From positions 4,320,001-4,384,000 of the forward strand of contig OY969695.1 of the NCBI GenBank assembly GCA_963701965.1: a stretch of 64,000 nucleotides of DNA, given 5' to 3'. This document shows, one piece after another, positions 13,755-30,513 of the stretch (the stretch's first letter is position 1; each line of letters opens with the position of its first letter). The position numbers were made by a program, and so were the translations under genes. This DNA is from an uncultured Gemmatimonadales bacterium. GTDB taxonomy: Bacteria > Gemmatimonadota > Gemmatimonadetes > Gemmatimonadales > Gemmatimonadaceae. Below the pieces are notes generated by a model. That model did no database searches and had not been told where the DNA came from. It saw nothing but the letters and a program-made list of their open reading frames with translations.

Positions 13755-14521
13755 CGGCGGAGCGCGCTCGACCACAGCCACCGGGTGAGTCCGAGCGCGA
13801 TCGCGGCCACCAGGACGGCAATGAGCGCGATGCGCGGCGGGTACTGTCCGGTCAGCGCGGCCGCCGGAACCGTAGTCGTCCACGCGATCGGCAGGAGATA
13901 CACGAACAGGATGCGCAGGGCGCCGGGGTAAGCCGACACCGGATAGCGCGCCGCTTCGTACACGCTGTCGAACAGGACGGAGAGATTTTCCACGGCGACG
14001 AACCAGAATGCCGCGCTCATGAGGGTCAGCCACAGGGCGTAGACGAGCGCCGCCGCGGCGATGAACGTGATGCCGAACGCGGCGATCTGGACCACCGATG
14101 GCGCATGGCCCGATGCGCGCCACGCCGCGTAGCCCGCGATCGCGAGGCCGGCAATGACGTCGGCGAATCGCCACACGTCGAGCCGGCGAAACGTCGTGTA
14201 CAGCTGGGCATCGACGGGCCGGGTGAGTACGAGGTCGAGCGAGCCGGTGCGCACGGCGCTCGCGAGTTGACCAATGCCCGGCCGGAAGATCGCTTCGACG
14301 AGACCGGCCAGCGCGTTGAATACGCCGAGCAGCACGACGACCTGCCAGTAGCTCCAGCCGCCGAGACGTGTCGCGTGACTGAAGAAGAGGCCGAGCGTGA
14401 GCAGCGCCGTCAGGAGCCAGAACGCCGTGCCCAGCAGGCTGGCCACGAAGTTGCCCCGGTACTGCAGCTCTTCGGCCGCGTTGACGCGCCACAGCGCGGC
14501 GAGCACGCGCCACGTGATCAT
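13733..14521 (-). CDS. ABC-2 family exporter permease
   Basis: ATG at 14521. ELQYRGNF, VRTGSLDLVLTRPV, ARYPVSAYP, RRYTSAGG. Confidence 0.88.
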   Translation of the reverse strand: MITWRVLAALWRVNAAEELQYRGNFVASLLGTAFWLLTALLTLGLFFSHATRLGGWSYWQVVVLLGVFNALAGLVEAIFRPGIGQLASAVRTGSLDLVLTRPVDAQLYTTFRRLDVWRFADVIAGLAIAGYAAWRASGHAPSVVQIAAFGITFIAAAALVYALWLTLMSAAFWFVAVENLSVLFDSVYEAARYPVSAYPGALRILFVYLLPIAWTTTVPAAALTGQYPPRIALIAVLVAAIALGLTRWLWSSALRRYTSAGG

Positions 14522-15321
14522 CCGCCCACGGCTCCATAGCGGCGAATGCCGCGCCACCAGACCAACCGGTACGCGCCCCACCACACCACGCACCAGAGGA
14601 TCTGCGCGGCGAATCCACTGGCCAGGACATCGGCCGAGCGGGCCGTCCCGGTGAGGACATCGGCGGGGAAGGCGAGCATCGACGGAAACCAGAGCCAGTG
14701 CGCGACGCGCTGGACGCCCGCGGGAAGAAGCGTGAGCGGCGCGATGCGACCCGAGAGAAAGAGCGCGACGCCGAATTGCAACTCCGTCAGCGCCGTCGCC
14801 CGCGTCGTCCAGAACGCGAGGAGGCCGATCGCATAGCCGTTGAAGAACCGGATCCACGCCGCCAGCGCCACGGCGGCGGCCGCCAGCGCCCACCGGCCCG
14901 GGGCGAACGGCAGGCGGGCCGCGGGCCACAGGGCGGCGATCAGCACCCAGGCGGCGACCACGAAGATGGCGGCGCGGGCTTTGTAGGCGATGTTGTCGGC
15001 GATCGCTTCGTGCACGGGACTGATCGGGCGCGCGATGCGAAAATTCATCTCGCCCTCGCGGATCCAACTGTCAATGTACCAGGCGTCCCACGCCGCGGTG
15101 AGTTGGCCGATCAGTGTGACCGCGAAGAAGTAGCGGGCGAAATCCGTCTGGTCGTACCCGCCGACCGCACCGCTCCCGGCGATCGACCACCAGATCCCGA
15201 GCGCGACGGTCGGTTCGGCGATGCCCCACAAGAACCAGATCGCAATGGTGGCGCGGTATTGCAGGTCGACCAGCCAAGCGGCCCGCAGCAGCGCGGCGTA
15301 GCGCTGGATCCACACCGTCAT
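14518..15321 (-). CDS. ABC-2 family exporter permease
   Basis: LQYRA, IREGEMNFRIARP, LSGRIAPL.LLP, GIRRYGAVGG. Confidence 0.88.
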   Translation of the reverse strand: MTVWIQRYAALLRAAWLVDLQYRATIAIWFLWGIAEPTVALGIWWSIAGSGAVGGYDQTDFARYFFAVTLIGQLTAAWDAWYIDSWIREGEMNFRIARPISPVHEAIADNIAYKARAAIFVVAAWVLIAALWPAARLPFAPGRWALAAAAVALAAWIRFFNGYAIGLLAFWTTRATALTELQFGVALFLSGRIAPLTLLPAGVQRVAHWLWFPSMLAFPADVLTGTARSADVLASGFAAQILWCVVWWGAYRLVWWRGIRRYGAVGG

Positions 15322-16292
15322 TCGCGGAACGCCAGTTGGATCACTTCCTCAATGGGCGGGTCTTCGACCACGAGATCGGTGACGGGGACGGCGGCCAGCA
15401 ACCGCGCGCTGATCGCCGCGGCCTGGTCGCGCGGAATCTCCAGCTGGGCGCGCGGAAACGTGAAGTCGATGACGGTGCCGAACCCGGCGAGTTGCTGTCG
15501 CGTCACGCCGTCGCCGAGGACGAGCGCGAGCCGCTTGATCGGCTTGAGCCGCGCCGCCAGGGCGTCGAGCGCGCCATCGTACAGCAGGCGGCCGCGGTTC
15601 ATGGTGAGGACGCGCGACGCGAGCGCGGTCACGTCGGCCATGTAGTGCGACGTGAGCAGGATCGTCGCGCCGTGGCGATCGCGATACGCGGACAGGAACG
15701 CGCGGACGGCCGCTTGCGCGGTGAGGTCGAGGCCCAGGGTCGGCTCGTCGAGGAACAGGATTTCGGGCTGGTGGAGCAGGGCGGCGGCCAGCTCGCATTT
15801 CATCCGTTCGCCGAGCGAGAGCTGCCGCACGGGTTTGTCCACGATGTCGGCCAGGTCGAGGAGCGCGATCAGCTCGTCGCGGCGTGCCCGATACTCGGCG
15901 GCGCCGATCGCGTAGATCGCGCGATTGAGTTGGAACGTCTCGTCAGCCGGGAGGTCCCAGAGCAGCTGTTGTTTGTTGCCCAGCACGAGGGCAATGCGCC
16001 GCTTGAACGCCGACCGGCCGGCCGCGGGATCGAAGCCCGCGACGCGGACGTGGCCGCTGGTCGGGAACAACAGCCCGGTGAGCATCTTGAGCGTCGTCGT
16101 CTTGCCGGCGCCGTTCGGCCCGAGGAACGCCACGATCTCCCCGGGCTCGATCGAGAACGAGACGTCGGCCACGGCCTCGACCGACCGGTACGTCGGTCGC
16201 GCCAACGCGACGATCGCGCTCCAGAGACCCCTGGCCCGCACCTTCACCCGATAGACCTTGCCGAGTGTCTCCGCGACGATGATCGGTGGCAT
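15318..16292 (-). CDS. ABC exporter ATP-binding subunit
   Basis: Walker A GPNGAGKTT, signature LSLGERMK, Walker B ILFLDEP, TSHYM. ATG at 16292. Confidence 0.95.
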   Translation of the reverse strand: MPPIIVAETLGKVYRVKVRARGLWSAIVALARPTYRSVEAVADVSFSIEPGEIVAFLGPNGAGKTTTLKMLTGLLFPTSGHVRVAGFDPAAGRSAFKRRIALVLGNKQQLLWDLPADETFQLNRAIYAIGAAEYRARRDELIALLDLADIVDKPVRQLSLGERMKCELAAALLHQPEILFLDEPTLGLDLTAQAAVRAFLSAYRDRHGATILLTSHYMADVTALASRVLTMNRGRLLYDGALDALAARLKPIKRLALVLGDGVTRQQLAGFGTVIDFTFPRAQLEIPRDQAAAISARLLAAVPVTDLVVEDPPIEEVIQLAFRE

Positions 16293-16463
16293 GCGGAAGT
16301 ATGGCCCTCGCTGTCGCCGCTGGGATACGCGGAGTGCCCTCCGCCGAGGACAGCCTCCTCGACCCAATGGATGCGTGCATGGCATAACTGGCGACAGAGC
16401 AAACGGTTAGATAGGGGCGGATAACGGTTGCGCTAGGCGCGAATCTCGCTTCGCGCCCTTGGC

Positions 16464-17162: not shown

Positions 17163-18665
17163 ATGTTCTTCTGCCGAGGCGGGGAGTCTCACGCCTGGAC
17201 GGACTCCGATGATGCGGCCAAGTGTTGCAACGGCTATGTGAGGGCCGTGCGTGTCGCCCGTGACGCGGGCGGACACGTCGAGTTGGTCTACTACTGGCGC
17301 CCGTCCGCACCCGCGGCTCCCGCGCCGCGGACCGAGACCGCCGCGGCCGGCATCGCCGGCACGGTGACCCCGCGCGCGCCGTCGCCGGTGCTGACGGTGA
17401 GCGATGGCGCGGCTCGCTCGCACGGGACGGAAAGGACAGACGGGCAGGACGACGGCGCGTTGCGTCATGTCGCGTTCTTTCGCGCGCTGGGCGCCACGGA
17501 GGCGGGGACACCCGAGTGGGAAGCGACATCGGCCGGTCTGGTCGTGCTGCGACTGCTCGACCGGTGGGCCTGGCGCCACATTCCGGAGCGGGCGCCGACG
17601 TTTCGCGAGTTCGTCACGGTGCGGCGCGCCATCGCGCGCGTGCCGGCTGGCCCGGTGCGCGATGCCCTGGAGCTGTTGGCGGCCGCGGTCTCGGTGTTTT
17701 CCGGATCGCGGCCGGCGCCGGTGAACGATTGCCTCATGACGTACGCGCACGCGCTGCGCGATGCGGCGCAGTGGGGCCTCGCGGCCAATGTGTACGACAC
17801 GATCGTCGGCAACGCGCAGGGGACGGCGGCGGCCGCGCTCGTGCCGGAGTGCGCGGTGCGCGCCGCGTTCTGTCTCCGGATGTTGGGGCGGCTGGACGAC
17901 GCGGAGGCCGCGTATCGGCGGGGATTCGAGGTCGCCACGGAAAGCGGTGACCGGCGCAGCGCGCTCCTGGCGCGCATCGGTCTGGCGAGTGTGACCGCCC
18001 GCCGGGGCGCGCTCGCGGACGCGGAGCAGTTGCTCAATGACGTGATCGGAGAGGCGGCGGGGACGGGTCTCGACGCGGTACGGGCCGCGGCGTTGCACGA
18101 TCGTGGCGGCGTTGCGGTCCTGCGGCGGGAGTACGAGGCCGGGGCGCTGCTACTATATGAAGCCTTCGCGCTGTACCAGGATGCCGCGAACCGGGACCGC
18201 GCGCTCAACGACCTGGCGACCGCGTTGGCGAGCCTTGGCCTGCGCGGGGCGGCGCGGGACGCGTACTTCGTCCTGCGCGCGACGTCGAATCAACAGGATC
18301 TGCGGTGGTGGGCTGGGCTCAACCTCATGCGGTTGGCGGTCGGCGACCGGAATGAGGCGGAGTTCGAGCAGTATCGCGGCTTTCTCGTGGCGGAACGGTT
18401 GACCGGAACGCATGCGGCGCACTACGAGCTGTTTGTGGGTGAGGGCCACCGCGCGTTCGGACGGCGCGAGCGGGCGCGCAGCGCCTTCACGCGGGCGGTG
18501 GAGTTGGCGCGACGGTTTCGCGTCCCGTCGGTGCTGGCCAGCGCCGAGGCGGCGCTGGTAACTCCGGAGTCGGCGGCCGGGCGCCCGAGTTCGGAAGACG
18601 CGCCGGCCGGGGCGGTCGCGCGGATCGTGACCGCCATGCGTGCGCTGGCGGGCGCCGCGTCGTGA
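17163..18665 (+). CDS. TPR-like alpha-solenoid protein (paralog of 29392..30513)
   Basis: Repeated helical pairs (AFCLRMLGRLDDAEAAYRRG; LASVTARRGALADAEQLL; ALHDRGGVA). Start uncertain. Confidence 0.7.
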   Translation: MFFCRGGESHAWTDSDDAAKCCNGYVRAVRVARDAGGHVELVYYWRPSAPAAPAPRTETAAAGIAGTVTPRAPSPVLTVSDGAARSHGTERTDGQDDGALRHVAFFRALGATEAGTPEWEATSAGLVVLRLLDRWAWRHIPERAPTFREFVTVRRAIARVPAGPVRDALELLAAAVSVFSGSRPAPVNDCLMTYAHALRDAAQWGLAANVYDTIVGNAQGTAAAALVPECAVRAAFCLRMLGRLDDAEAAYRRGFEVATESGDRRSALLARIGLASVTARRGALADAEQLLNDVIGEAAGTGLDAVRAAALHDRGGVAVLRREYEAGALLLYEAFALYQDAANRDRALNDLATALASLGLRGAARDAYFVLRATSNQQDLRWWAGLNLMRLAVGDRNEAEFEQYRGFLVAERLTGTHAAHYELFVGEGHRAFGRRERARSAFTRAVELARRFRVPSVLASAEAALVTPESAAGRPSSEDAPAGAVARIVTAMRALAGAAS

Positions 18666-19495
18666 CAATGCGGGTCGAGTTGGGACGGGAGGCGGCGCCG
18701 ATGGACGTGGCCTTCGCGCTGCCGCCCGCGGGCGTCATCGCGTTGCTGTCCGATCGCTTGCTGCAGACGCTCAAGGTCGTCGTCGCCGGGCGCCACAATG
18801 TGATCGCCGTCGAGACGCTCGCCGAGCTGGACGCGGTGCTCCGGGCCGGGGTCGCGGATTGCGTAGTGGTGGACCCGCAAGGGCCGGGACGGCCGGGGGC
18901 CCAGAGTCTGACGCCGCTCTTGGCGCGGTATCCCGGGGTCCATGTGGTCGTGTATACGACTCTGACCGCGGCGTCAATGCACGACGTCGCGGCAATGGGG
19001 TTGCGCAATGTGGTGCTGTTCAACTGCGACGATCGGACGGCCTATTTCCGCGACTTGTTGGAGACGGCGCCGTCGGCGGCGTTGACGGACTCGGTACTGG
19101 CGCACATCGCGCCGGCGCTCTCGCAGTTGCGGCCGGAGTTGCGCCACGCGATCGCCGAATTGTTCCGTGCGCCGGAAACAGTGCGAACGGTCGAAGCCAT
19201 GCGCCGGATCGCCGGGCTCTCACGCATGACGGTCGGGCGCGCGTTGACGCGGGCCGGGCTCGTCTCGCCGGGGCCCATGATGCGGGCGGCGCGGGTGCTG
19301 CGGGTCTACCACTATGTGCGCCGTGGCGGTCTGCGGCTCAAATGGATCGCGCCGCGCCTTGGCTACAGCTCGCCGCGCAAGCTCGCCGACGAGTGCAAAG
19401 CGGTCGCCGGTTTGACGCCGAGGCTGCTGGTCAAGACGGTCGAGCCCGAGGAGTTCGCCGCGTACGTGGCGCGCCGACTCCAGCGCGGGTACTGA
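18662..19495 (+). CDS. AraC-type HTH regulator with N-terminal receiver-like domain
   Basis: DCVVVDP...VVVYT receiver-like region; C-terminal IAPRLGYSSPRKL...VAGLTP matches the AraC second HTH. GTGA overlap with the upstream gene. Confidence 0.75.
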   Translation: MTMRVELGREAAPMDVAFALPPAGVIALLSDRLLQTLKVVVAGRHNVIAVETLAELDAVLRAGVADCVVVDPQGPGRPGAQSLTPLLARYPGVHVVVYTTLTAASMHDVAAMGLRNVVLFNCDDRTAYFRDLLETAPSAALTDSVLAHIAPALSQLRPELRHAIAELFRAPETVRTVEAMRRIAGLSRMTVGRALTRAGLVSPGPMMRAARVLRVYHYVRRGGLRLKWIAPRLGYSSPRKLADECKAVAGLTPRLLVKTVEPEEFAAYVARRLQRGY

Positions 19496-19662
19496 TGCCG
19501 GGTCGTCACGGCGCGCTCGTCTGTTTCGGCACCCCGGTGCGTCATTCGCAAATTTTGCGTCTTAGTGCGCCGAAACGGGCGGCCGTGTATTGCAGTGTGA
19601 CAGTTTGGGCAGCATACTGACGCTACAGGCAGTCAGCGAGAGTGCGCCGCTGATCGTTTTGC

Positions 19663-20022
19663 GTGTCGCTCACACCCGAGTTGATGCTCGCTGCGCTGTT
19701 TCGGCGTGGTCCCTCGCCGTCGCGGCTACCAGTGCCGCTGTCGTCGGCCGTGCGGTTGACCGGCGCTCGCCACGTGTCGCGCGCGACGCAGCATGGCGAG
19801 ACGGTGCTGCTCGACCGGCACGGTGGCGTCTACTACGCGCTCAACGAGAGCGGGGCCTTCATCTGGGAGATGCTGCGCGGCGGGACGACGTTCGCGGCGA
19901 TCGTCGAGGCGCTCGACGAACGGTATGACGCGCCGCGGGCACAGCTGACGGACGACGCGCGGGCGCTGCTCGACGCGTTGCTGGCCGCGCGTCTGGTGGA
20001 GGCGGAGGGCGCTCCGGCATGA
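19663..20022 (+). CDS. Lasso peptide B1: PqqD-family RiPP recognition element
   Basis: ETVLLDRHGGVYYALNESGAFIWEML...IVEALDERYDA...LLDALLAARLV. Start could be 19681 or 19684. Confidence 0.92.
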   Translation: MSLTPELMLAALFRRGPSPSRLPVPLSSAVRLTGARHVSRATQHGETVLLDRHGGVYYALNESGAFIWEMLRGGTTFAAIVEALDERYDAPRAQLTDDARALLDALLAARLVEAEGAPA

Positions 20023-20399
20023 AGCGGGTCGGTCTGCCGCAGGCGGCGTGCGTCGTGGTCGCCATCAAGGTGCTCTTGATGGTCTTGGGGTTTGCCCGGG
20101 TGCTGCGCCTGCTGGAGTGGCGCGTGCGGCGCAGCCCCGTGAACGCGGAGCCGGAGCGGCCGGCGGTCGAGGGCGTCGCGCACGCGGTGGTCGCGGCGGC
20201 GATCGTCGTACCGGCGCGCGTCGAATGCCTCGAGCAATCGCTCGCGCTCTGGTTCCTGCTGCGGCGGCGCGGCGTCGGGGCGGAACTGGCATTCGGCGTG
20301 CGGCAGTTTCCGTTTGGCGCGCACGCGTGGGTAACGTATCGCGGCGAGCCGGTGAACGAGGACGTGGACGCGCTGCGCCAGTACGCCGTGTTCGCCTGA
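20019..20399 (+). CDS. Lasso peptide B2: transglutaminase-like leader peptidase
   Basis: CLEQSLAL (catalytic Cys), L.FGV, FGAHAWV (catalytic His), GEPVNE. ATGA overlap with B1. Confidence 0.92.
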   Translation: MKRVGLPQAACVVVAIKVLLMVLGFARVLRLLEWRVRRSPVNAEPERPAVEGVAHAVVAAAIVVPARVECLEQSLALWFLLRRRGVGAELAFGVRQFPFGAHAWVTYRGEPVNEDVDALRQYAVFA

Positions 20400-20419: not shown

Positions 20420-22279
20420 ATGCCGGCATTTCTGGGTCTGGTCCGCCTCGCGGGTGGCCGCGTCGACGACACGCTGGACGCGCTCCGCGCATCCCACGCC
20501 GAGGGCTGGTCCTGGTGTGACTCAACGGATCGCTCGGCCGCGCTCGGTCATACGACAGGGGACCCGCGGGCCACGCTGGCACGGGCCGGCGACTGGATGG
20601 CGGTCGGGATGGCGCGCCTCGATAATCGCGACGAGATCCGTGCGTGGTCGGGCGCGCCGGCTGATATCTCCGACTTGCAGGTGATACTGGCGGGGATCGC
20701 GGCGCGCGGCGTTCCCGGTATCCGGAGCATCCTTGGCGACTTCGCGATCGTCGCCTGCCATGCGCGCTCGCGCGACACGATCGTCGCGCGCGACGCGTTC
20801 GGGGTCAAGCCGCTGTTCTACCGCGCGCTGCCGGAAGGGCTGGCGTTGAGCTCCCACGCAGCGCCGCTCGCGGGGGACGCGGACTACGACGCGGACTACG
20901 TCGCCGAGTTCATCCTCAGCGGATTCGACCGCGATCACCGCACGCCGTGGCGCGGGGTCCGCGCGGTTCCCCCGGGGCACTGCATGGTGGTCCGCGATGG
21001 AGTAACGACGCTGACGCGCTATTGGTCGGCGTCGCAGTTCCCGCCGCGGGAGCTGGCGCCGCGCAATGGGGCAGGTGAGGGGAGCCGCGCGGCGTTCCGC
21101 GCGCTGCTGGAGACGGCGATTGCGTCCAACGTGTCGGGGGCTGACGACACCTGGTCGCAGCTGTCCGGTGGGCTCGACTCGTCGACGCTCGTGTCGGTCG
21201 CCGAGACGATGCGCACGGAGGGGAGTGTCCGCGGTGGGGTGGCGGGGGTCATCACCATGGTGGACTCGTTGGATGACGAGTGGCCCTATGCGCACGCGGT
21301 GGCCGAGCGCTATGGGTTGCGGCACGAGGTCGTCAAGGACTACTGGCTGTGGCAGGATGACGGGACGGCTCCGCCGCGGAATGATGTGCCGGACTCGTTG
21401 TATCCGTTCTACGCGCGCAACCGGCGGTTGTGCGAGATCGTGAAGTCGGCGGGCGGGCGGGTGCTGTTGAGCGGGGTGGGGCCGGATCACTATCTAGCTG
21501 GCAACCGGTACTTCTTCGCGGACTGGTTGGCCCAGGGGCGTGTGCTCACGGCGGCGCGCGAGATGTGGCGGTGGTCGAATCTGGCCAAGACCGGGTTTCT
21601 CCGGTTTGCGCTCGACAACGCGATCATGCCGTTGGCGCCGGCTTCGCTCCGCCGCCTGGGCGCGCCGCGGTGGGCGCAGGTGTACGACTGGATCGCGCCG
21701 GACTTTGCGCGGCGGCTCGGGCTCAACGAGCGCACCACCTGGGGCCGGGCGCTCGATGCGCCTGCCGGGCGGAAATACGCCGGGCAGGTCGAGGTCGACA
21801 TGACGCACCTCCCGGTGTGCATCGATCGCGGGGCGTTCGAGGATGGGATCGAGATGCGATACCCGTACCTCTATCGTCCGCTCGTCGAGTACTGCCTGCA
21901 ACTCCCCCGGGAGCTCCGGACGCAGCCCTTTGCCCGCAAGTGGGTGATGCGCGAGGCGGCGAAAGGGATCGTTCCCGAGATCGTGCGCGTGCGCCGGACC
22001 AAGGGCGCCATCAGCGGCCGCACCCGCTGGTCGCTCCGCCGCGAGTCCGCCGTGGTCGACTCGCTGCTGTGCGACTCTATTCTCGCCGAGCTCGGGTGCA
22101 TCGATCCTGTCAAGCTGCGGCGCGCGCTGGATCAGGCCATCGAAGGGGACGACAAAGTCCTGTTCGCCGCGGTCCGCACGTTGGCCCTCGAGACTTGGCT
22201 GCGCGTCACGAATGACCGGTGGGCTGATTGCGGGGCGCCCACTGAATCTCAAGATCTCGCACTCGCCCCCGCCGGGTGA
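20420..22279 (+). CDS. Lasso peptide C: asparagine-synthetase-like macrolactam cyclase
   Basis: ARLDNR, GDFA, ARDAFGVKPLFY, PP-loop LSGGLDSS, LSGVGPD, RYPYLYRPLVE. No N-terminal catalytic Cys. Start 20405 or 20420. Confidence 0.9.
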   Translation: MPAFLGLVRLAGGRVDDTLDALRASHAEGWSWCDSTDRSAALGHTTGDPRATLARAGDWMAVGMARLDNRDEIRAWSGAPADISDLQVILAGIAARGVPGIRSILGDFAIVACHARSRDTIVARDAFGVKPLFYRALPEGLALSSHAAPLAGDADYDADYVAEFILSGFDRDHRTPWRGVRAVPPGHCMVVRDGVTTLTRYWSASQFPPRELAPRNGAGEGSRAAFRALLETAIASNVSGADDTWSQLSGGLDSSTLVSVAETMRTEGSVRGGVAGVITMVDSLDDEWPYAHAVAERYGLRHEVVKDYWLWQDDGTAPPRNDVPDSLYPFYARNRRLCEIVKSAGGRVLLSGVGPDHYLAGNRYFFADWLAQGRVLTAAREMWRWSNLAKTGFLRFALDNAIMPLAPASLRRLGAPRWAQVYDWIAPDFARRLGLNERTTWGRALDAPAGRKYAGQVEVDMTHLPVCIDRGAFEDGIEMRYPYLYRPLVEYCLQLPRELRTQPFARKWVMREAAKGIVPEIVRVRRTKGAISGRTRWSLRRESAVVDSLLCDSILAELGCIDPVKLRRALDQAIEGDDKVLFAAVRTLALETWLRVTNDRWADCGAPTESQDLALAPAG

Positions 22280-22297
22280 AATTCATTCGGAGAGGAA

Positions 22298-22435
22298 ATG
22301 CAAAGCCAGACGACGAAAACCGGCTATGCTGCGCCGAAGCTCGTGACGCAGGGGCCAGTGGGTCAGCTTACTCTCGGAACTGCCACGCTGACGGGGGAAC
22401 CCATTGCAGGCCTGCACATCAGCGGCGAAGTGTGA
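22298..22435 (+). CDS. Lasso peptide precursor A (45 aa), absent from the ORF track
   Basis: Purine-rich RBS ggagagga. MQSQTTKTGYAAPKLVTQGPVGQLTL|GTATLTGEPIAGLHISGEV*: YxxPxL...G motif, Thr at -2, core Gly1 and Glu8. Confidence 0.92.
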   Translation: MQSQTTKTGYAAPKLVTQGPVGQLTLGTATLTGEPIAGLHISGEV

Positions 22436-22439
22436 AAAC

Positions 22440-22479
22440 ACTGACAGAGGGCGGCAGTTGCGTGCCGCCCTCTGTCAGT
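22440..22479. terminator. Perfect 17-bp hairpin shared by the convergent lasso and receptor operons
   Basis: actgacagagggcggca-gttgcg-tgccgccctctgtcagt. Overlaps the receptor stop codon; TGTTTT follows on the minus strand. Confidence 0.75.
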
Positions 22480-25144
22480 ACCCGACACGGACGCCGATCG
22501 ACGCAGTTCGTCCTGGCGTCGCGTACGCGGCGTTCTGCTCAATTGCGTGATTGTTCGCAAGGTTGTCCACGCTAAGAAATCCCGACAGGCGCCGATCGAT
22601 CTGTTGATCGACCGAGAGTCTGAGTTTGACGAATCCCGGAAATCTCTCCAGATAAGCTCGCGGCGTGAGCAACGGTTGCAGGCCGGCAAGCGCACTGTCC
22701 TGCTTTAGCACATTCTGGCTCGTCCAGTAGCCAATATATGTCGCGCCTGCGGCGATCTCGCCGCCCTTCCATGGGCTAGCACCAACCATCAACCCGCCCG
22801 AAGTGAAGGGTACGAGTTGGGCCTGATCGCCGACTCGATAGCTACCATTGTAGTCCGGTCCCAGGTTGGCGATGCGACTCAATGTGTACGAGAACTCGGC
22901 GCTCAGTCGTATCACAGAGATCTGTGCCGAGGCACATGTCTCGAGACCTCTGTTGTCAATCCGGCCAAGATTCTGATATTGAAGTCCGGCTGTATTCGGC
23001 GTGCCTGCCGGAACGATCTCCTGAATGATGAGATTGCGTGCCTGTTGGTTGTAGTATGTGGCTGACAGAGAGCCAATGCGTCCAAAATCAACGTCGATAC
23101 CGACGTCGCCGCCGAGTTGTCGTTCAGGCGCGAGGGCGGCATTCGGGAGTTGGGACGTCCCGCTGATGGTCTGGGCCATGTGCTGTGATGGCAGCCCAGG
23201 TTGAATACCCTCTCCATACGACGCGCGCGCCTTGAACACAACATCGCTAACCGAGTGAACGAACGACAGTCCGAAGCGGGGGGCCACGGCCGTGCCGTAA
23301 GCTGGTCCAATACCGCTGTTGCGATCGGCACGGATTCCTGCGGTCAGAAATAACTGTTCGCGAACCCCGAGCTGCATCTGGCCGAAGGCTCCCGTATTGC
23401 TCACGGGATCGCGATCTAGCAGTGCAACCCCGACAGGAGAGGGGACCGGCACTAATCCGATTACGCTCGGCAAGCCGCTGGCGACAAATTCGTCTATCGT
23501 GCGTTCGTAGTGGTCGAATCCCGCCGTCGCGACCGCGCGCAACGCACGACTCATCAGCCAGGTCGCGGATGTATTGTACGCGATCGACGCCTTGCCTACC
23601 GACCGATCCAGTGCAGCGAGCAGAGTATCGGTCGGTGTCGTGAGTTGCGGCGACGTACGTGCGTATTCAGTCTCTGATCGATCGTATCCGATCGTGAGAT
23701 TGTGCGTCCACCAACTCGACGCGCGATAGTTGAGATTGATTCCATAGGTCTGTTCATGCTCGGCCTCCGTCACGTTCTGAGGCTTCGCGAACTGCGGGAT
23801 GCCGGTGGCCACCTGCTGTGGTGACTCGACGAGGGGAAAGGTCCGCTGTAGGTACCGCGCCGAGAGTTGGATCGACAGTGGCCCTTGATCGAGATGAACT
23901 CCGCCATAGGCGCCGGGGTCTGACGAGTAGTAACCGGGCAGCCAGGCACCGACATGTCGGTACGAGGCCCCAAGGTTGTATCCCGCCCCCTCGCGCGCGC
24001 CTTCCAGCGAGACCGCGTATTGCTGCTGCAACGCGCCGGCGTCCTTGTCCGGGCCCTGGACGACGCCCTCGGCGATGGAGGCGTTGAGGGTAGGACGATC
24101 GGGCGCGCCAATGCCGTGTTTCGTGAAGATCTGCATGACGCCGCCACTGGCGTCGGACCCATAGATGGTCGACGCTTGCGGCCCGCGGATCACTTCGACG
24201 TGGTCGATGCTGTTGACGTCAACCGCGGCGTAGGCGAAGTCCGCCACTTCCACGCCGTCGATGTACGTCTTGATGTTGTTGACGTCGAAGGAGTTGATCC
24301 CCCGCACGGTGATCGTGCTGTAGTAGTCGAAGTTGCCTTGCGCCCACGAGATGCTGCCGGGCACGGAGCCGCGGAAGATCTCGTCCACGCGGGCGTAGTG
24401 CTGCGTCTGGAACTCGGCCGCCGTGATGACGCTGATGGGCGTCGGCAGCTCCTTTTCCTGCGTCGGCACGATCGTCCCGGTGACGACGACGCGCTCCAGT
24501 GAGCCGGTAAGCTGCTCGAGCCCGAAATCCACGGTCGGGCGCTCGCCTGGCGCGATGGTGACGGTGCGGGCCGCCGGGTGGTAGCCGAGGAGGCGGACCC
24601 GGGCCGGGAAGGTGCCGGCCGGCACCGAGTCCAGGCGGTAAGTGCCGCTGTCCGACGACGTGGCCCGCTGCCAGAGGCCATCGAGGATGACCGTCGCCCC
24701 CGGCAACAGTCTCCCGGTGCGCGCATCGCGCACGCGGCCCGTGATCGCCAAGGGCGCCGCCGGCGCGATGATGATGGCCGAGTCGGCCGCCAACTTCGCA
24801 CCCAGTCCCGTGCCCCGCAACACGATGCCGAGAACGCGGCCGAGCGAGGCGTGCGCATCGTGGAACGACACGCGCTGCGGCGCCGCGCTCACCACCGCCG
24901 TCTCGAAGTCGAACGGGATCCCGGTCGAATCGCGGATCAGATCCAGCGCCTGCCGTACCGTGACCCCGCGAAAATCAACCGCGATGGCCCGGTCCAGCGA
25001 TGGCGCCGGCGGCACTGCCGCCGCCGGACGCGCGCGAGCGTCCGGGGTGACCGGTGATTGAGCAACAGCAACGTGCGATTCGATCCCTCCGCTGACCGAC
25101 AGGAACGTCAGCAGGGGAACCCATCGACGAACGGACCAACGCAG
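22475..25144 (-). CDS. TonB-dependent receptor/transducer (STN + CarboxypepD-like + plug + barrel)
   Basis: STN-like N-terminus, TonB box LERVVVTG, plug IDHVEVIRGPQASTIYGSDASGGVMQIFTK, C-terminal NLAN...PGRTASIGVRVGY. The signal peptide is only present if started at CTG 25144. Confidence 0.9.
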   Translation of the reverse strand: MRWSVRRWVPLLTFLSVSGGIESHVAVAQSPVTPDARARPAAAVPPAPSLDRAIAVDFRGVTVRQALDLIRDSTGIPFDFETAVVSAAPQRVSFHDAHASLGRVLGIVLRGTGLGAKLAADSAIIIAPAAPLAITGRVRDARTGRLLPGATVILDGLWQRATSSDSGTYRLDSVPAGTFPARVRLLGYHPAARTVTIAPGERPTVDFGLEQLTGSLERVVVTGTIVPTQEKELPTPISVITAAEFQTQHYARVDEIFRGSVPGSISWAQGNFDYYSTITVRGINSFDVNNIKTYIDGVEVADFAYAAVDVNSIDHVEVIRGPQASTIYGSDASGGVMQIFTKHGIGAPDRPTLNASIAEGVVQGPDKDAGALQQQYAVSLEGAREGAGYNLGASYRHVGAWLPGYYSSDPGAYGGVHLDQGPLSIQLSARYLQRTFPLVESPQQVATGIPQFAKPQNVTEAEHEQTYGINLNYRASSWWTHNLTIGYDRSETEYARTSPQLTTPTDTLLAALDRSVGKASIAYNTSATWLMSRALRAVATAGFDHYERTIDEFVASGLPSVIGLVPVPSPVGVALLDRDPVSNTGAFGQMQLGVREQLFLTAGIRADRNSGIGPAYGTAVAPRFGLSFVHSVSDVVFKARASYGEGIQPGLPSQHMAQTISGTSQLPNAALAPERQLGGDVGIDVDFGRIGSLSATYYNQQARNLIIQEIVPAGTPNTAGLQYQNLGRIDNRGLETCASAQISVIRLSAEFSYTLSRIANLGPDYNGSYRVGDQAQLVPFTSGGLMVGASPWKGGEIAAGATYIGYWTSQNVLKQDSALAGLQPLLTPRAYLERFPGFVKLRLSVDQQIDRRLSGFLSVDNLANNHAIEQNAAYATPGRTASIGVRVGY

Positions 25145-25209: not shown

Positions 25210-26322
25210 TTATCGCCGAAACAGTCGAACTTCCCGCCCGTGGCGCTCGTACGCCAATCCCCGCACGGTCTGGCGCAACGCATCCAGCACCTGCACATCC
25301 GTGCCGCCATTGACCGTAAATGTGACTGTGCGGGCAGCCAACACCGTATCGTCGATGCGGAACTGAAGATCGTACGCCCGTCCGATCTCCTCCGCTACAT
25401 CCCGCAACGGCATGTCCGTGAACACACGCCGCCCGTGCGTCCACTCGAAATACCATGGCGACACCGGCGTCACCACCGTCTTGCCATGCGCCACGTCGAT
25501 CACGCCAATGTACCCACTCCGCACCACCGTCTCAGCGCCACCCACGCGGATCGACACACTGTCCGTCTGCACGGCCACGCGCGGCGGCGCGCCGGCATAC
25601 GCGCGCACATCGAACACCGTACCCAGATCCCGCGCCTCTACGCCCGCGGCCCACACGATAAACCGCCGGTCCGTCCGGTGCTCGACGTGGAACGAGGCCT
25701 GGCCCACGAGTGACACCACGTGATCCGCGCCGCCCCGCTCGAACCCGAACCGCAGCTCGCTCGCCGGCGCCAGCACCACGTCAGTGCCATCCGGTAAGTG
25801 CACCGATCGCGTCTCGCCCCGGTTCGTGGCGTACGCCAGCGACGACGTCGGCGCCGACACCCGCTCTGGCTCCCGCACTGGCGGATGCGTCTCGCGCCGT
25901 ACTACCAGGGCCGTCGCCACCGCGACTACGATACCGCCCGCGACCCCCGAGAGCGTGCCCAGCCGACGCCAGCGCCGCGCGCGGCGCACCCGCGGACCGT
26001 GGGCGAGCCCGCCGTCGATGACCCGCAGATGCTCCACGCCGCGTCCACCCACGCGGACGCGGTCGCCCTCCTGTCCCGCGATCCGATCCTGCAGCTGTTC
26101 CCACGCCTCCTCGGGATCGACTTCGAGCGGTTCCGGCCGCGGACTCAGGCGCGCCCACACCTTCCGGTACGCGCGCACGTACCGCTGCAACCCCTCGTCA
26201 TCAGCGAGCCAGCGCTCCACCAAGCGCCGCTCCGGCAACGTGCTGAGGCCGTCGAGGTAGCGGTGGATCGCCGCCCACCGCAACCGCTCCAACTCCTCAT
26301 CCCGCGGGTTGTCGTTGATCAT
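25210..26322 (-). CDS. FecR-family anti-sigma/transducer
   Basis: N-terminal IHRYLDG..VERWL, single TM helix, TNRGETRSVHLPDGT.V.LAPASEL, LVGQASFHV, RDLGTVFDV, WTHGRRVFTDMPL. Confidence 0.92.
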   Translation of the reverse strand: MINDNPRDEELERLRWAAIHRYLDGLSTLPERRLVERWLADDEGLQRYVRAYRKVWARLSPRPEPLEVDPEEAWEQLQDRIAGQEGDRVRVGGRGVEHLRVIDGGLAHGPRVRRARRWRRLGTLSGVAGGIVVAVATALVVRRETHPPVREPERVSAPTSSLAYATNRGETRSVHLPDGTDVVLAPASELRFGFERGGADHVVSLVGQASFHVEHRTDRRFIVWAAGVEARDLGTVFDVRAYAGAPPRVAVQTDSVSIRVGGAETVVRSGYIGVIDVAHGKTVVTPVSPWYFEWTHGRRVFTDMPLRDVAEEIGRAYDLQFRIDDTVLAARTVTFTVNGGTDVQVLDALRQTVRGLAYERHGREVRLFRR

Positions 26323-26331
26323 CGGCTTTGG

Positions 26332-27006
26332 CTATAAAGACGCGGGACGGCGCCCGTCTGCGTATGACACGTCCGGCAGCCAGGCCGCCAGCTCCCGCCT
26401 CAGCAATGTGTACGCCTGGTGGAGTTGCGTGTCGACGGTTCGAACCGAGACACTCATCAGTTCGGCGATTTGTGCGTTTGTCATCTGCCCCACGCGATGC
26501 AAGACCAGCGTCTCGCGCCGCCGGAGCGGCAACTTCGCGATGGCCCGGGCGATCGCGCTCTGCAACTCGGCGGCGGCGATGGTCGCCTCGACCGGAAGGC
26601 GCGCGGGAATCTCGGGAATCATCCCCGGGCCGAACGTCCCGCGCGATCGCAACACACGCGCGATCCAAGAGCGTTCGACGCGCTGGTGACGGAGGGTCGA
26701 GATGGCGCGCTTGCGGACGGCGCCATACAGATAGGCGATGAGCGACAGCCGGACTGTGAGCCCGTCCCGCTTGTCCCAGAGGTTGAACATCACCTCCTGC
26801 ACGATCTCCTGGGCATCAGCCCGGGACTCCACCAATCCGTTGGCGACACTGACCAGCCACGGTTGATAGTGGAGAAACGCGTCGCGAAACGCGCCCTCCT
26901 CGCCCCGACGGATGCCTTCGACCCACAGCCGATCAATGGCGGCCTGGTCGGGCAGCGTCGCGATCGCCGACGCCGACCGCTCCGAGAAGCGCGGCCGGCG
27001 CGTCAC
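26332..27006 (-). CDS. ECF sigma-70 factor (FecI-like)
   Basis: ADAQEIVQEVMFNLW (region 2), AIAKLPLRRRETLVL..MTNAQIAELMSVSVRTVDTQL (region 4). Confidence 0.92.
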   Translation of the reverse strand: MTRRPRFSERSASAIATLPDQAAIDRLWVEGIRRGEEGAFRDAFLHYQPWLVSVANGLVESRADAQEIVQEVMFNLWDKRDGLTVRLSLIAYLYGAVRKRAISTLRHQRVERSWIARVLRSRGTFGPGMIPEIPARLPVEATIAAAELQSAIARAIAKLPLRRRETLVLHRVGQMTNAQIAELMSVSVRTVDTQLHQAYTLLRRELAAWLPDVSYADGRRPASL

Positions 27007-27605: not shown

Positions 27606-29339
27606 GTGTCCACGCGCATTCGGCTCATCTTTGGTGCCGCCGCTGGCCTTGCCGCGGCGGGGCAATCCGCAGGAGCCCAGAAGGTCATCGCGGCGCGGTC
27701 GGCCGTGGGAAGGACCATCGAAGCGCCCGTCCAGCGGGAGCAGGAGACCGCGAGTTGGCGGTCGGGGGATGTCATCGTCTGGGTCCGCGTCGCCAAGAGC
27801 GGCGCCATCTCCGTGTTCGCATCGCACGGATATCGATCGGCGTTTGCGCACCCGCTGGGGATTACGGCGGATGAAGCCGACAAATGGGCGGAAGTCGGCG
27901 ATCGCATCGCGGCGGGGCAGGCTGTCGCCGGGTCGATGGCACTTGGCGACGGCGACATCATCCTGGAACCGGGGCGCCTCGGCGACTCGGTGGTCCTGAA
28001 TGTCCGCCTCGGCGGCACTCGGCCGGACGCCATCGCCATCGATCTCGGCACCGTCATGCTGCGCGACGTCGGGCCCGCCCTGCGGAACACCGCCCGCATC
28101 GCCCGCGCCGCCCAAGCCCCGCAGCCCGTCGACCCACCCCCGCAAGCGGCGGCGGCCGCGGCTCCGCCGGCCCCAAGGCCCGGCGCCCCAGCCGCACCTT
28201 CCCAACCCGCGCCAATCTCCGCCGCTGGATCTCCGGTCGCACCACCGGCGCCTGCGGCGCCGGCCGTTCCTCGCGCGGCCGCAGCGATCTCGCAACCTGT
28301 GTCGCCACCCGCCGCAGTGTCCGCCGCGGAATCACCGCAGGCGGCGTAGCGGCACCGGCCGCCGGCGGCGCCAGTGTCCGCCGCGCCGGCGCCGACGGCG
28401 CCGCCGTCGGCCGCCGCCTTGCCGGCCGCGCCAGTGATGGCCGCATCACAACCACCGCCGTCAGCCGCGCCAGCCCCGGCGGCAATCGCCGCTGTCGCGC
28501 CCACAGCCGTGGCGTCGGCGGCTCGGCCGCTACCGGTCGCCGCACCAGCGGCCGTCCCGGCCGCGCCAGTGATGGCCGCATCACAGCCAGCTCCATCAGC
28601 GCCACCGCCGGCGGCAATCGCCGCCGTCGCGCCGACAGCCGTGGCGTCGGCAACTGCGCCGTTACCAGCCGCCGCGCCAGCGACCGCCGTACCGTCGACA
28701 GCCGCAGCGCCGACAGCCGTCGCCGTTGCTCCCCCCGCGCCGACGGCGGCAACACCGGCTGCGGCAGCTCCTACTCCAGTTGCGGCTCCCGTGCCTTTGG
28801 CGCGCCCAGCGCCGCAGGCGCCGGCGCGGCCGGCAGCCGCACCTGCCACACCATTCCCCCACACCGCCTCCACCCCCTTGGCTGCGCCGGCAAAGCGCGC
28901 CCCGATACTGGTGGCGACCGCGCCGGTGTCGCCAGCGACCACGGACACCGCGACGAGGGCGCTGCACCGCACCAGCGCGGGCAGCATCGCCAAGCGGGCC
29001 CCGGGTCGGCTCGCGCGACCGGATGCCGCCGCTGCCGACGCCGCGCGCCTGCCGGCATCGACCGTCGCCAACCTGGTCGAGCAATGGCAGCCCCAGCTCG
29101 ACCTCTGCTACACGGAGTACGGCCTCAAGCTCAACCCGGCCCTGACCGGGACCGTCTCGCTCCGCCTCGCGATCCGCCCAACGGGCGACGTCGGCGCAAC
29201 GACCGTCACGCGCCACAACTGGTCCGGCCGCGGCGGCGCCGAGGCCGAGCTGTGTATCCGCACGCGCGCAAAAAGCTGGATGTTCCCGCCGTCGTCGACC
29301 CCCACCACCCACGACTTCACGGTCGCATTCGCGCCATGA
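27606..29339 (+). pseudogene. Secreted Pro/Ala-rich protein with C-terminal AgmX/PglI (TonB_C-like) domain, interrupted by an in-frame TAG at 28347-28349
   Basis: GGAGG RBS, GTG start, signal peptide (AGA|Q). Both ORF halves share one frame. C-terminus LCYTEYGLKLNPALTGTVSLRLAIRPTGDV...LCIRTRAKSWMFP. Confidence 0.65.
28422..28651 (+). repeat. Imperfect direct repeat (about 95-bp unit, 135-bp spacing) in the Pro/Ala linker
   Basis: ccggccgcgccagtgatggccgcatcaca...ggcggcaatcgccgc.gtcgcgcc.acagccgtggcgtcggc at 28422 and 28557 (PAAPVMAASQP...PAAIAAVAPTAVASA twice). Confidence 0.85.
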
Positions 29340-29391: not shown

Positions 29392-30513
29392 ATGCGCGCA
29401 CCGGACGCCGTGGATCACCCGTACCGCGCGCCGCATGTAGCGCCGTCTGTCAGACTGCCGAGCCTTCGGCTCTCCGACACGACGCGCGCTGATGACGGCC
29501 CCGAACCGGCGCGCGCGCTCCTCGCCCACGCCGATCAGTTCCGTCATGCCGAATCCTGGTTGCCGGCGATCGCCGCCTACCGCGCCGCCATCGCGGGCGC
29601 GACCGACTCGACCGATCACATGCTCCTCGCCGAGGCCCACCTCCGCCTCGGCTTCTGCCTGCGCATGGCGGGCGACCTCGGCGCCGCCGCCGAGGCCTAC
29701 GCCGCGGCCAACACCCACGCCCAGGCCACGCGCGACATCCACCGCGCGCTCCTCTCCCGCGTCGGTGCCGCCGTCGTCGTCGCCAGTCGCGGCAACCTCC
29801 CGGCTGCCGCGATGATGCTGGAGGCCGTCGTCCTCGAGGCCGAGGCCCTCGTCTCGACGCAACCAGGCCTCGTCGATGCCATTGCCCGGGCCAAGCACGA
29901 CCGCGGCACGATCGCGCACGACCGCGGCGACCCCGCACGCGCCGTCGTCGACCTCTACGATGCCTATCATCTCTATGGCGACTCGACCCAACGCGACCGC
30001 GTCCTCATCGACCTCGCCCGCGCCTTCGCCGACCTCGATCTGATCGACGTCGCGCGCGACGCCCTCCGGTTGTGCCACGCCGGCGCAGCAGGCCCGGCGG
30101 CGCGTACCACCGCCGCCATCAACCTGTTGGACATCGCCCAACGCGAGGGCGACGAGGCGATGTTCGAGCACCACCGCCGCGCCCTCGCCCACGACATGCT
30201 CGTGCCGCGCCACGCCGCGTTCTATCACCTTTTCGCGGGCGAAGGCCTCCGGCGATTCGGGCACCTGGGCGCCGCGCACGCCGCGTTCGCCCAAGCCCGC
30301 GATATCGCCGCCCATCACGGGTTGGGCGCGGTGCTCATTCGCGCCGACGCCGCGCTCGCCGATGGCACCGGGGCCGATAGCCCGCCGCATGCCCACGCCC
30401 CGCGCACCGCACCCGCGCCGGTGCAGCGCGTCGCCGCCGGCATCGCCGCCATGTTCGCCTCGAGCCCCTACGCCGATCACCCTTGGCCAACGATCGTCGT
30501 CGACGAGCGGTAG
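29392..30513 (+). CDS. TPR-like alpha-solenoid protein (paralog of 17163..18665)
   Basis: GFCLRMAGDLGAAAEAY, AKHDRGTIA, RDRVLIDLA, FYHLFAGEGLRRFG align by eye with the 17 kb protein. Confidence 0.7.
   Translation: MRAPDAVDHPYRAPHVAPSVRLPSLRLSDTTRADDGPEPARALLAHADQFRHAESWLPAIAAYRAAIAGATDSTDHMLLAEAHLRLGFCLRMAGDLGAAAEAYAAANTHAQATRDIHRALLSRVGAAVVVASRGNLPAAAMMLEAVVLEAEALVSTQPGLVDAIARAKHDRGTIAHDRGDPARAVVDLYDAYHLYGDSTQRDRVLIDLARAFADLDLIDVARDALRLCHAGAAGPAARTTAAINLLDIAQREGDEAMFEHHRRALAHDMLVPRHAAFYHLFAGEGLRRFGHLGAAHAAFAQARDIAAHHGLGAVLIRADAALADGTGADSPPHAHAPRTAPAPVQRVAAGIAAMFASSPYADHPWPTIVVDER

Follow-up and report, generated by a model that had tools for sequence, protein, structure and literature searches.

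Can the peptide and the receptor of a lasso-peptide locus be exchanged together? This question is raised by a stretch of 64,000 nucleotides (here called the window) of contig OY969695.1, positions 4,320,001 to 4,384,000, from an uncultured Gemmatimonadales bacterium. Here the gene for a lasso-peptide precursor meets the gene for a TonB-dependent receptor. A first-pass annotation of the window described a segment of lower GC content over the C-terminal barrel of the receptor, beside the precursor. It proposed that one recombination could replace the core peptide and the ligand-binding loops of the barrel together. A step in the GC content of third codon positions (GC3), conflicting trees of the receptor halves and of the precursors, recombination breakpoints, and co-variation of core and barrel were the signs it named. 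Comparison with related loci indicates that the 3' part of the receptor gene and the precursor have very probably been exchanged as one block, with the enzymes and signalling genes kept. The two genes are indeed arranged tail to tail; their stop codons are 39 bp apart with one hairpin between them. The features around this junction are as follows.

20420..22279, plus strand: lasso cyclase C (PF00733 above cut-off; GC3 0.86, host-like)
22298..22375, plus strand: precursor leader, 26 amino acids, with Y-x-x-P and Thr at -2
22376..22435, plus strand: precursor core GTATLTGEPIAGLHISGEV and stop codon, with a predicted Gly1-Glu8 ring
22440..22479, no strand assigned: 17-bp hairpin between both stops (-41.2 kcal/mol, z -7.9), with the receptor stop codon in one arm
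22475..24091, minus strand: barrel of the TonB-dependent receptor, 22 strands (PF00593; GC3 0.65 below ~23983)
24137..24454, minus strand: receptor plug domain (PF07715), the site of most left breakpoints seen in relatives
24482..25144, minus strand: receptor N-terminus with STN (PF07660, 30.1 bits, cut-off 28.4) and CarboxypepD_reg (PF13620/PF13715); GC3 ~0.9
22250..24330, no strand assigned: exchanged block mapped from relatives by six triplet tests (plug part, barrel, hairpin, core)

The low-GC stretch beside the precursor is real. GC content is 0.584 across 22280-23760 and 0.671 in the whole genome, where values as low as 0.595 are seen in 70 of 3411 non-overlapping 1.5-kb windows. The four 60-bp lines counted by hand earlier (30, 29, 38, and 47) were counted exactly. 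In the receptor gene, GC3 is 0.90 before and 0.65 after a step at codon 344 (numbering from GTG 25015), corresponding to window position ~23983 (2-log-likelihood range 23956-24028), and none of 1000 permutations matches this step. The shift had been placed near 23.7-23.9 kb; it exists, and lies about 220 bp past the proposed end of the segment at 23760, at the start of the barrel. It is kept at fourfold sites (0.94 and 0.67 on either side), so amino-acid make-up is not its explanation. The impression that the precursor is less GC-rich than the cyclase holds for GC3 (31/45 against 533/620, p=0.004), and the cyclase retains 0.80-0.95 right to its 3' end. The lowest-GC segment of the window, 22240-24340, has bounds that match those of the exchanged block mapped from relatives.

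Only this receptor has a GC3 step (0.27) among 18 TonB-receptor-like genes of the genome; the other 17 range from -0.03 to +0.07. For this control, 18 full-length genes of 23 receptor-like matches were split at the plug, and 5 short or partial ones were skipped. A genome-wide scan for GC3 steps was dropped in its favour because wrong-frame and over-extended open reading frames (ORFs) swamp the signal.

Relatives of the locus were collected from genomes and metagenomes, and the source names of the homologues are Gemmatimonadaceae or Gemmatimonadales. The receptor-precursor-cyclase junction is present in all 5 other genomes of the genus. On the plus strand of the window, the gene order is TPR protein, AraC-type regulator, B1, B2, cyclase, and precursor (B1-B2-C-A). 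The minus strand carries an extracytoplasmic function (ECF) sigma factor, FecR, and the receptor with its STN, CarboxypepD_reg, plug, and barrel. The remaining features are listed below.

17163..18665, plus strand: TPR-repeat protein, a conserved upstream neighbour (PF13424, below cut-off; same place in G001, G003, G004, L035, L038, and L040)
18662..19495, plus strand: AraC-type regulator upstream of the lasso genes (PF12833 above cut-off; orthologues in place 68-74% identical)
19594..19655, plus strand: conserved non-coding element before B1, a possible promoter (TGAC ... CGC[CT]ACA in 8/8 aligned loci)
19684..20022, plus strand: lasso B1, leader-binding RRE (PF05402, 76.7 bits; ATG 19684 conserved, ORF open from 19663)
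20019..20399, plus strand: lasso B2 leader peptidase (NF033537, 101 bits, cut-off 33; PF13471)
25210..26322, minus strand: FecR-type anti-sigma factor (PF04773, PF16344)
26332..27006, minus strand: ECF sigma factor (PF04542, PF08281; TIGR02937 above cut-off)

Genomes G001, G003, and G004 have the full gene order. The contig of G005 is cut at both ends, and in G002 the TPR and AraC genes are on the other side and the contig ends inside the cyclase. The metagenome scan found nine loci: seven with a cyclase, L041 with the precursor only, and L043 with neither within 4.4 kb. Three of the nine repeat genome loci, leaving 11 distinct loci with a precursor. Split or partial tblastn matches of the L019 cyclase, the L080 receptor and B2, and the L040 B2 suggest frameshifts or assembly errors.

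The exchange is visible between the loci L016 and L017. Their identity is 96% in ECF, 92% in FecR, 92% in the receptor N-part, 81% in the plug, and 69-70% in the barrel. On the other side it is 73% in the hairpin plus precursor, 88-90% in the cyclase, 94% in the B genes, and 97% in both AraC and TPR. Over 16.5 kb, three of 33 windows are at 71% or lower, every one of them in the barrel. The same trough is seen between L035 and each of L016, L017, L019, and L037. The reverse pattern is seen between L017 and L040, with flanks at 75-88% and barrels at 86-89%; L040 has a more distant background and shares the barrel class of L017, L019, and L037 (85-89%). Proteins behave likewise: P0004 and P0010 are 99% identical in the N-part and 73% in the barrel, and P0006 and P0012 are 76% and 92% identical, respectively.

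The separate trees conflict with one another. Approximately unbiased (AU) tests were done with 8 rows; duplicates were omitted, as were L020, L039, and L041 because they were divergent, on a short contig, or lacking genes. With the barrel data, all three flank trees are rejected (p at most 0.003, delta log-likelihood 208-258), and the barrel tree is in turn rejected with the data of each flank (p at most 0.002). For the hairpin plus precursor, the cyclase/B tree is rejected (1e-12), whereas the barrel tree is not (0.13). All six triplet tests, on triplets picked from pairs already showing the pattern, give an exchanged block from plug to precursor with the core included, each with 0/100 permutations. 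Mapped to the window, the left ends fall at 24283-24521 and the right ends at 22109-22356. The left boundary of the swap is within the receptor gene, as the annotation had it, in or just before the plug and not mid-barrel. The block moves in relatives with the enzymes and signalling genes kept, as proposed; what tends to move with the barrel is the whole precursor including its leader. A hypervariable block of peptide and receptor sensing part between conserved flanks, as in agr- and com-like loci, is found in these relatives. In another genus, L081 and L085 are 81-93% identical from receptor to cyclase and 65-79% outside, with near-identical precursors (identity windows, no formal test). Four further pairs (L022/L023, L085/L084, L076/L077, and L086/L089) do not show such a sharp block.

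Is any swap needed at all? The GC dip might come from amino-acid make-up or from faster evolution of the barrel in place, and barrels are usually more variable than plugs. This explanation is hardly credible, since the step persists at fourfold sites and is missing from the 17 other receptors of the genome. For the relatives it is contradicted by near-identical barrels in distant backgrounds and by the AU and triplet tests. Barrel classes differ at fourfold sites by 0.61-0.69, whereas AraC and TPR differ by 0.07-0.20 in these same close pairs. Silent sites this near to saturation indicate old alleles that were moved or kept, rather than local fast evolution or positive selection in place.

The barrel has lower GC3 than the receptor N-part in 10 of the 11 distinct loci (p 0.02 or less), L041 being the exception. 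The drop is therefore a standing property of the block and dates no single recent import; a single recent low-GC import as the sole reading is ruled out. We infer that long-lived polymorphism or repeated import left the block with low GC3 as a side effect. A GC3 drop as a general trait of lasso-linked receptors was also considered and rejected: outside the genus it is weak, with the N-part above the barrel in 17 of 21 and a mean difference of only 0.02. In unlinked receptors, the N-part is above the barrel in 5 of 12.

Judged from its genes, this is a lasso-peptide cluster of class II, and threading of the product is predicted. RRE (B1), transglutaminase-like leader peptidase (B2), and asparagine-synthetase-like cyclase are all present. 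The top NCBIfam matches of the cyclase are two lasso cyclase models, both below cut-off (the best, NF033535, 157.8 against 525 bits). The precursor of 45 residues has the Y-x-x-P leader, Thr at -2, a small residue at core position 1, Asp/Glu at 7-9, and no Cys. Y10, P13, and T25 are invariant in 11/11 precursors, as are G1, G7, E8, and G12 of the core, and the 11 distinct loci have 11 different cores. No S9 isopeptidase is present in the window locus, where 39 bp separate the stops, and none was matched in five congener loci. No GntR regulator precedes the precursor at the locus; an AraC-type HTH_18 gene is upstream of B1 instead.

The receptor probably starts at CTG 25144, which follows GGAGG and precedes a signal-peptide-like stretch. 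The frame and the GGAGG-CTG spacing are common to relatives, and ORF callers clip the signal peptide. The AlphaFold model of plug plus barrel has a predicted local distance difference test (pLDDT) score of 82 and a predicted template modelling (pTM) score of 0.85; the 22 strands were counted from its DSSP string. Foldseek matches of the model are TonB transporters, the FhuA-MccJ25 structure 4cu4 among them. ECF sigma, FecR anti-sigma, and an STN-bearing TonB receptor are in one operon, as in FecIRA, and a TonB transporter with a sigma/anti-sigma pair adjoins the cluster, as in astexin-type loci.

Does the core follow the barrel? In Mantel tests with 8 loci, core DNA correlates with the barrel at r 0.86 (p 0.0002), and at 0.84 given the cyclase; with the cyclase given the barrel, it is 0.23 (p 0.21). 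Core amino acids correlate with the barrel at r 0.52 by identity and 0.71 by BLOSUM distance. The expected co-variation is therefore seen, with the barrel and not with the cyclase.

Several observations weigh against exchange as one clean block of cognate parts. The hairpin plus precursor data also accept the receptor-N (0.08) and AraC (0.10) trees. The flank trees reject one another too, so the flanks are mosaic, and breakpoints inside the barrel also occur (P0004/L016: 96, 93, and 75%). The window allele has no close relative (best barrel amino-acid identity ~61%), and a swap in its own lineage is for that reason read from GC3 and from the relatives. The 8 Mantel loci hold about four barrel classes, with 5/8 sharing one; with so few independent events, the p-values overstate. 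Leader and barrel correlate at r 0.73, about as well as core and barrel. Core changes scale poorly with barrel changes: L017 and L039 share a barrel class, yet 7/15 core residues differ, while the barrels of L017 and L035 differ by 27%, yet only 3/15 core residues do. The change had been expected to centre on the ligand-binding loops; no such concentration is seen among 15 close receptors, in which entropy is 0.58 for the extracellular loops and 0.59 for the strands. With a 39-bp junction and a shared hairpin, any barrel swap must have a downstream anchor and would drag the precursor along. Finally, no ECF promoter motif common to the upstream regions of B1 and the receptor was seen by eye in the alignments.

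In a rival explanation, phages, bacteriocins, or another ligand diversified the barrel, and the precursor was a passenger because the nearest conserved anchor is beyond it. The short junction with its hairpin, the movement of the leader with the barrel, and the lack of loop enrichment are consistent with it, and bacteriocin pressure has been proposed for FpvA types in the available text of PMC2777410. Against it, receptors of this kind keep company with lasso genes across several genera (see the clade below), in L041 the precursor has stayed beside the receptor although neither B nor C is near, and 11/11 cores differ while ring residues are invariant. On balance a passenger precursor is doubtful, and it can be compatible with cognate binding.

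L041 has an intact precursor (9544-9672) beside receptor and FecR, and the 8 kb downstream contain neither B nor C; these enzymes may be elsewhere in its genome. An ECF gene and a TPR gene are on the far side.

The receptor tree has 42 rows; L080, L030, and L031, which are split or frameshifted, were omitted. Of the 31 rows in a clade with support 100/100, 30 adjoin a cyclase, an S9 peptidase, or a precursor. Outside it, 0/11 receptors have a lasso-gene match, two of the 11 having less than 350 bp downstream. From the next-best family receptors, 18 were taken, plus two weaker matches; three were skipped for a contig end close downstream, and two had been taken earlier. Convergent cyclase and precursor-like ORFs accompany 16 of the 18, and an S9 peptidase 17; neither cyclase nor S9 peptidase is beside the two weaker ones. 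All 10 rows without a peptidase group in a single clade (100/99). The tree suggests that these loci may have arisen from a peptidase-bearing ancestor by loss of the isopeptidase; the alternative was not rejected (p-AU 0.207).

Based on the lasso-linked receptor clade and on co-inheritance, that is, on guilt by association, the receptor probably binds the lasso peptide through its plug and barrel. For specificity of the peptide-receptor pairs to the allele, arguments for and against are evenly balanced.

Other lasso loci were seen along the way. A second lasso cluster of the same genome (G000:C1:2888000-2904000; L002, L003) is on an island of 56-60% GC with low GC3 throughout. Its SusC-like STN receptor, SusD-like protein, and S9 peptidase genes are convergent with a set of two precursor-like ORFs, cyclase, B2, and B1; the genes after it presumably resemble those for conjugation proteins. 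G001 and G005 also have a paralogous locus with a peptidase, in which five and four precursor-like ORFs, respectively, are in tandem (L022:5700-6800 and L023:5900-6650). In L075-L092, many precursors of peptidase-bearing loci share a tail like G-x-V-G-F/Y-x-L, which may serve as a follower or as a tag for recognition. A BNR-repeat protein occupies the usual place of the S9 peptidase at L075:6856-8784.

What might the peptide do? From their family membership, B1, B2, and C are predicted to convert the core to a Gly1-Glu8 lasso, which would be secreted and would likely bind plug and barrel of the matching receptor. To judge from the domains, binding would switch on the ECF sigma factor through an STN-FecR-ECF relay as in FecIRA, and each allele class would have a predicted private signal. 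A lasso peptide that acts as an extracellular signal, read by the cognate receptor allele and relayed in this way, is the most likely of the explanations weighed, with about even odds. In relatives, homologous recombination replaces barrel and core together; its anchors are the conserved plug at one end and the leader or the cyclase 3' end at the other. Old alleles with saturated silent sites would persist if selection disfavours mismatched pairs and favours rare types. A Gram-negative pherotype system, with kin-specific lasso signals, a dedicated clade of TonB transducers, and specificity reset by a swap of barrel and core in one crossover pair, is put forward tentatively, as possible with the balance somewhat against it. 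In such a system, enzyme-free receptor-precursor units like L041 would be matured in trans.

A matched pair could also serve uptake. The peptide might be a carrier of cargo or metal taken up by its own receptor, as with pyoverdine or methanobactin, with the ECF relay only adjusting uptake. The three-gene relay resembles FecIRA and MbnIRT (available text of PMC3621798), and a siderophore-like role has been suggested for isopeptidase clusters in the available text of PMC9266682. His14 is present in 10/11 cores, and S9 peptidases beside 17/18 of the next-closest receptors fit a carrier. The window locus, however, has no peptidase to release cargo; its core offers a single His and a single free Glu, and there is no enzyme for metal-ligand modification. 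A carrier is unlikely.

The peptide might instead be an antimicrobial against relatives with another receptor allele, the local allele giving entry or insensitivity. Lasso peptides can enter via TonB receptors, as with FhuA and MccJ25 (4cu4, among the fold matches), and there is a preprint on PupB and ubonodin, but the conserved locus has no ABC exporter, and according to the available text of PMC9266682, isopeptidase-type lasso peptides are mostly without antimicrobial activity. This role is very improbable.

In the DNA of the window and of the relatives, no exporter was found within the conserved locus. The ABC-2 transporter genes at 13733-16385, between ppk and the locus, were rejected as the exporter: they have no match in 9 related loci, and in the same place ppk adjoins a conserved small ORF. 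The locus has a fixed chromosomal site, being flanked in relatives as well by ppk and by another gene. The latter we take to be aquaporin-like. The genes at 17163-18665 and 29392-30513 belong to a TPR protein family with 17 matches in the genome, several beside AraC-type genes. At 28374-29339, an Ala/Pro-rich ORF has internal repeats, a C-terminal domain, and no Pfam match. The hairpin at 22440..22479 is likely a bidirectional terminator, and is unseen by the terminator scan because it has no T-run. A scan for sigma-70 promoters and terminators gave no excess over shuffled sequence. The pattern TGAC ... CGC[CT]ACA before B1 has two matches in the whole genome.

The locus reduces the system to peptide, receptor, and relay. 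Eleven natural cores with linked barrels in near-identical backgrounds are a ready cross-activation matrix. Such a matrix could show whether the peptide is read by the receptor, how far the pairs are specific, and which role, signal or carrier, the peptide has. If pairs are specific, agr-like specificity groups would extend to an outer-membrane receptor, and matched peptide-receptor parts would be available for engineering. If these loci are a pherotype system, it would supply the missing function of TonB-linked lasso peptides that are not antimicrobial.

The closest known layout is that of the astexin, sphingopyxin I, benenodin, and rubrinodin clusters, in which, as here, lasso genes are beside a TonB-dependent transporter and a sigma/anti-sigma pair. 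Lasso clusters with such neighbours are not a recent discovery, and their function is called enigmatic in the available text of a 2022 review of isopeptidase-type clusters (PMC9266682). They are mainly alpha-proteobacterial (available text of PMC13352647), and the present locus is from Gemmatimonadaceae. Unlike them, it has no isopeptidase, an AraC-type gene and no GntR, split B1/B2, a precursor that abuts the receptor stop, and a barrel and precursor that are exchanged as a block in relatives. Lasso clusters have been noted in Gemmatimonadota genomes, and the main text of that report makes no mention of TonB (PMC11316326).

Pyoverdine types of P. aeruginosa are each matched to an FpvA type and are mosaic over clonal groups (available text of PMC2777410). 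FpvA-FpvR-FpvI/PvdS is similar to the present locus in its STN receptor with anti-sigma and ECF sigma factors. Pyoverdine is a non-ribosomal siderophore made by large synthetase genes, whereas here the core is ribosomal with 15-19 residues and one edge of the exchanged block is within the receptor gene. Methanobactin (MbnIRT/mbnA) is a ribosomal peptide with a TonB receptor bearing an N-terminal extension and with FecR and ECF homologues, and receptor divergence is suggested to follow peptide structure (available text of PMC3621798). It differs in being a copper chelator with other enzymes and an exporter, and the available text of that source describes no tail-to-tail intragenic cassette.

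A swappable isopeptidase-free block of lasso precursor and barrel was not found in the literature searched, which did not extend to supplements or subscription papers, the original astexin and pyoverdine-locus papers included. Astexin-type clusters already have this gene layout; the swappable cassette without isopeptidase appears new, and a prior mention is possible.

In staphylococcal agr and Bacillus comQXP, conserved flanks enclose a hypervariable block that encodes the peptide and the receptor half that senses it. Their receptors are inner-membrane histidine kinases of Gram-positives, encoded by co-oriented genes. Here, in contrast, the sensing part is an outer-membrane barrel, the genes are convergent, and the specificity is predicted only.

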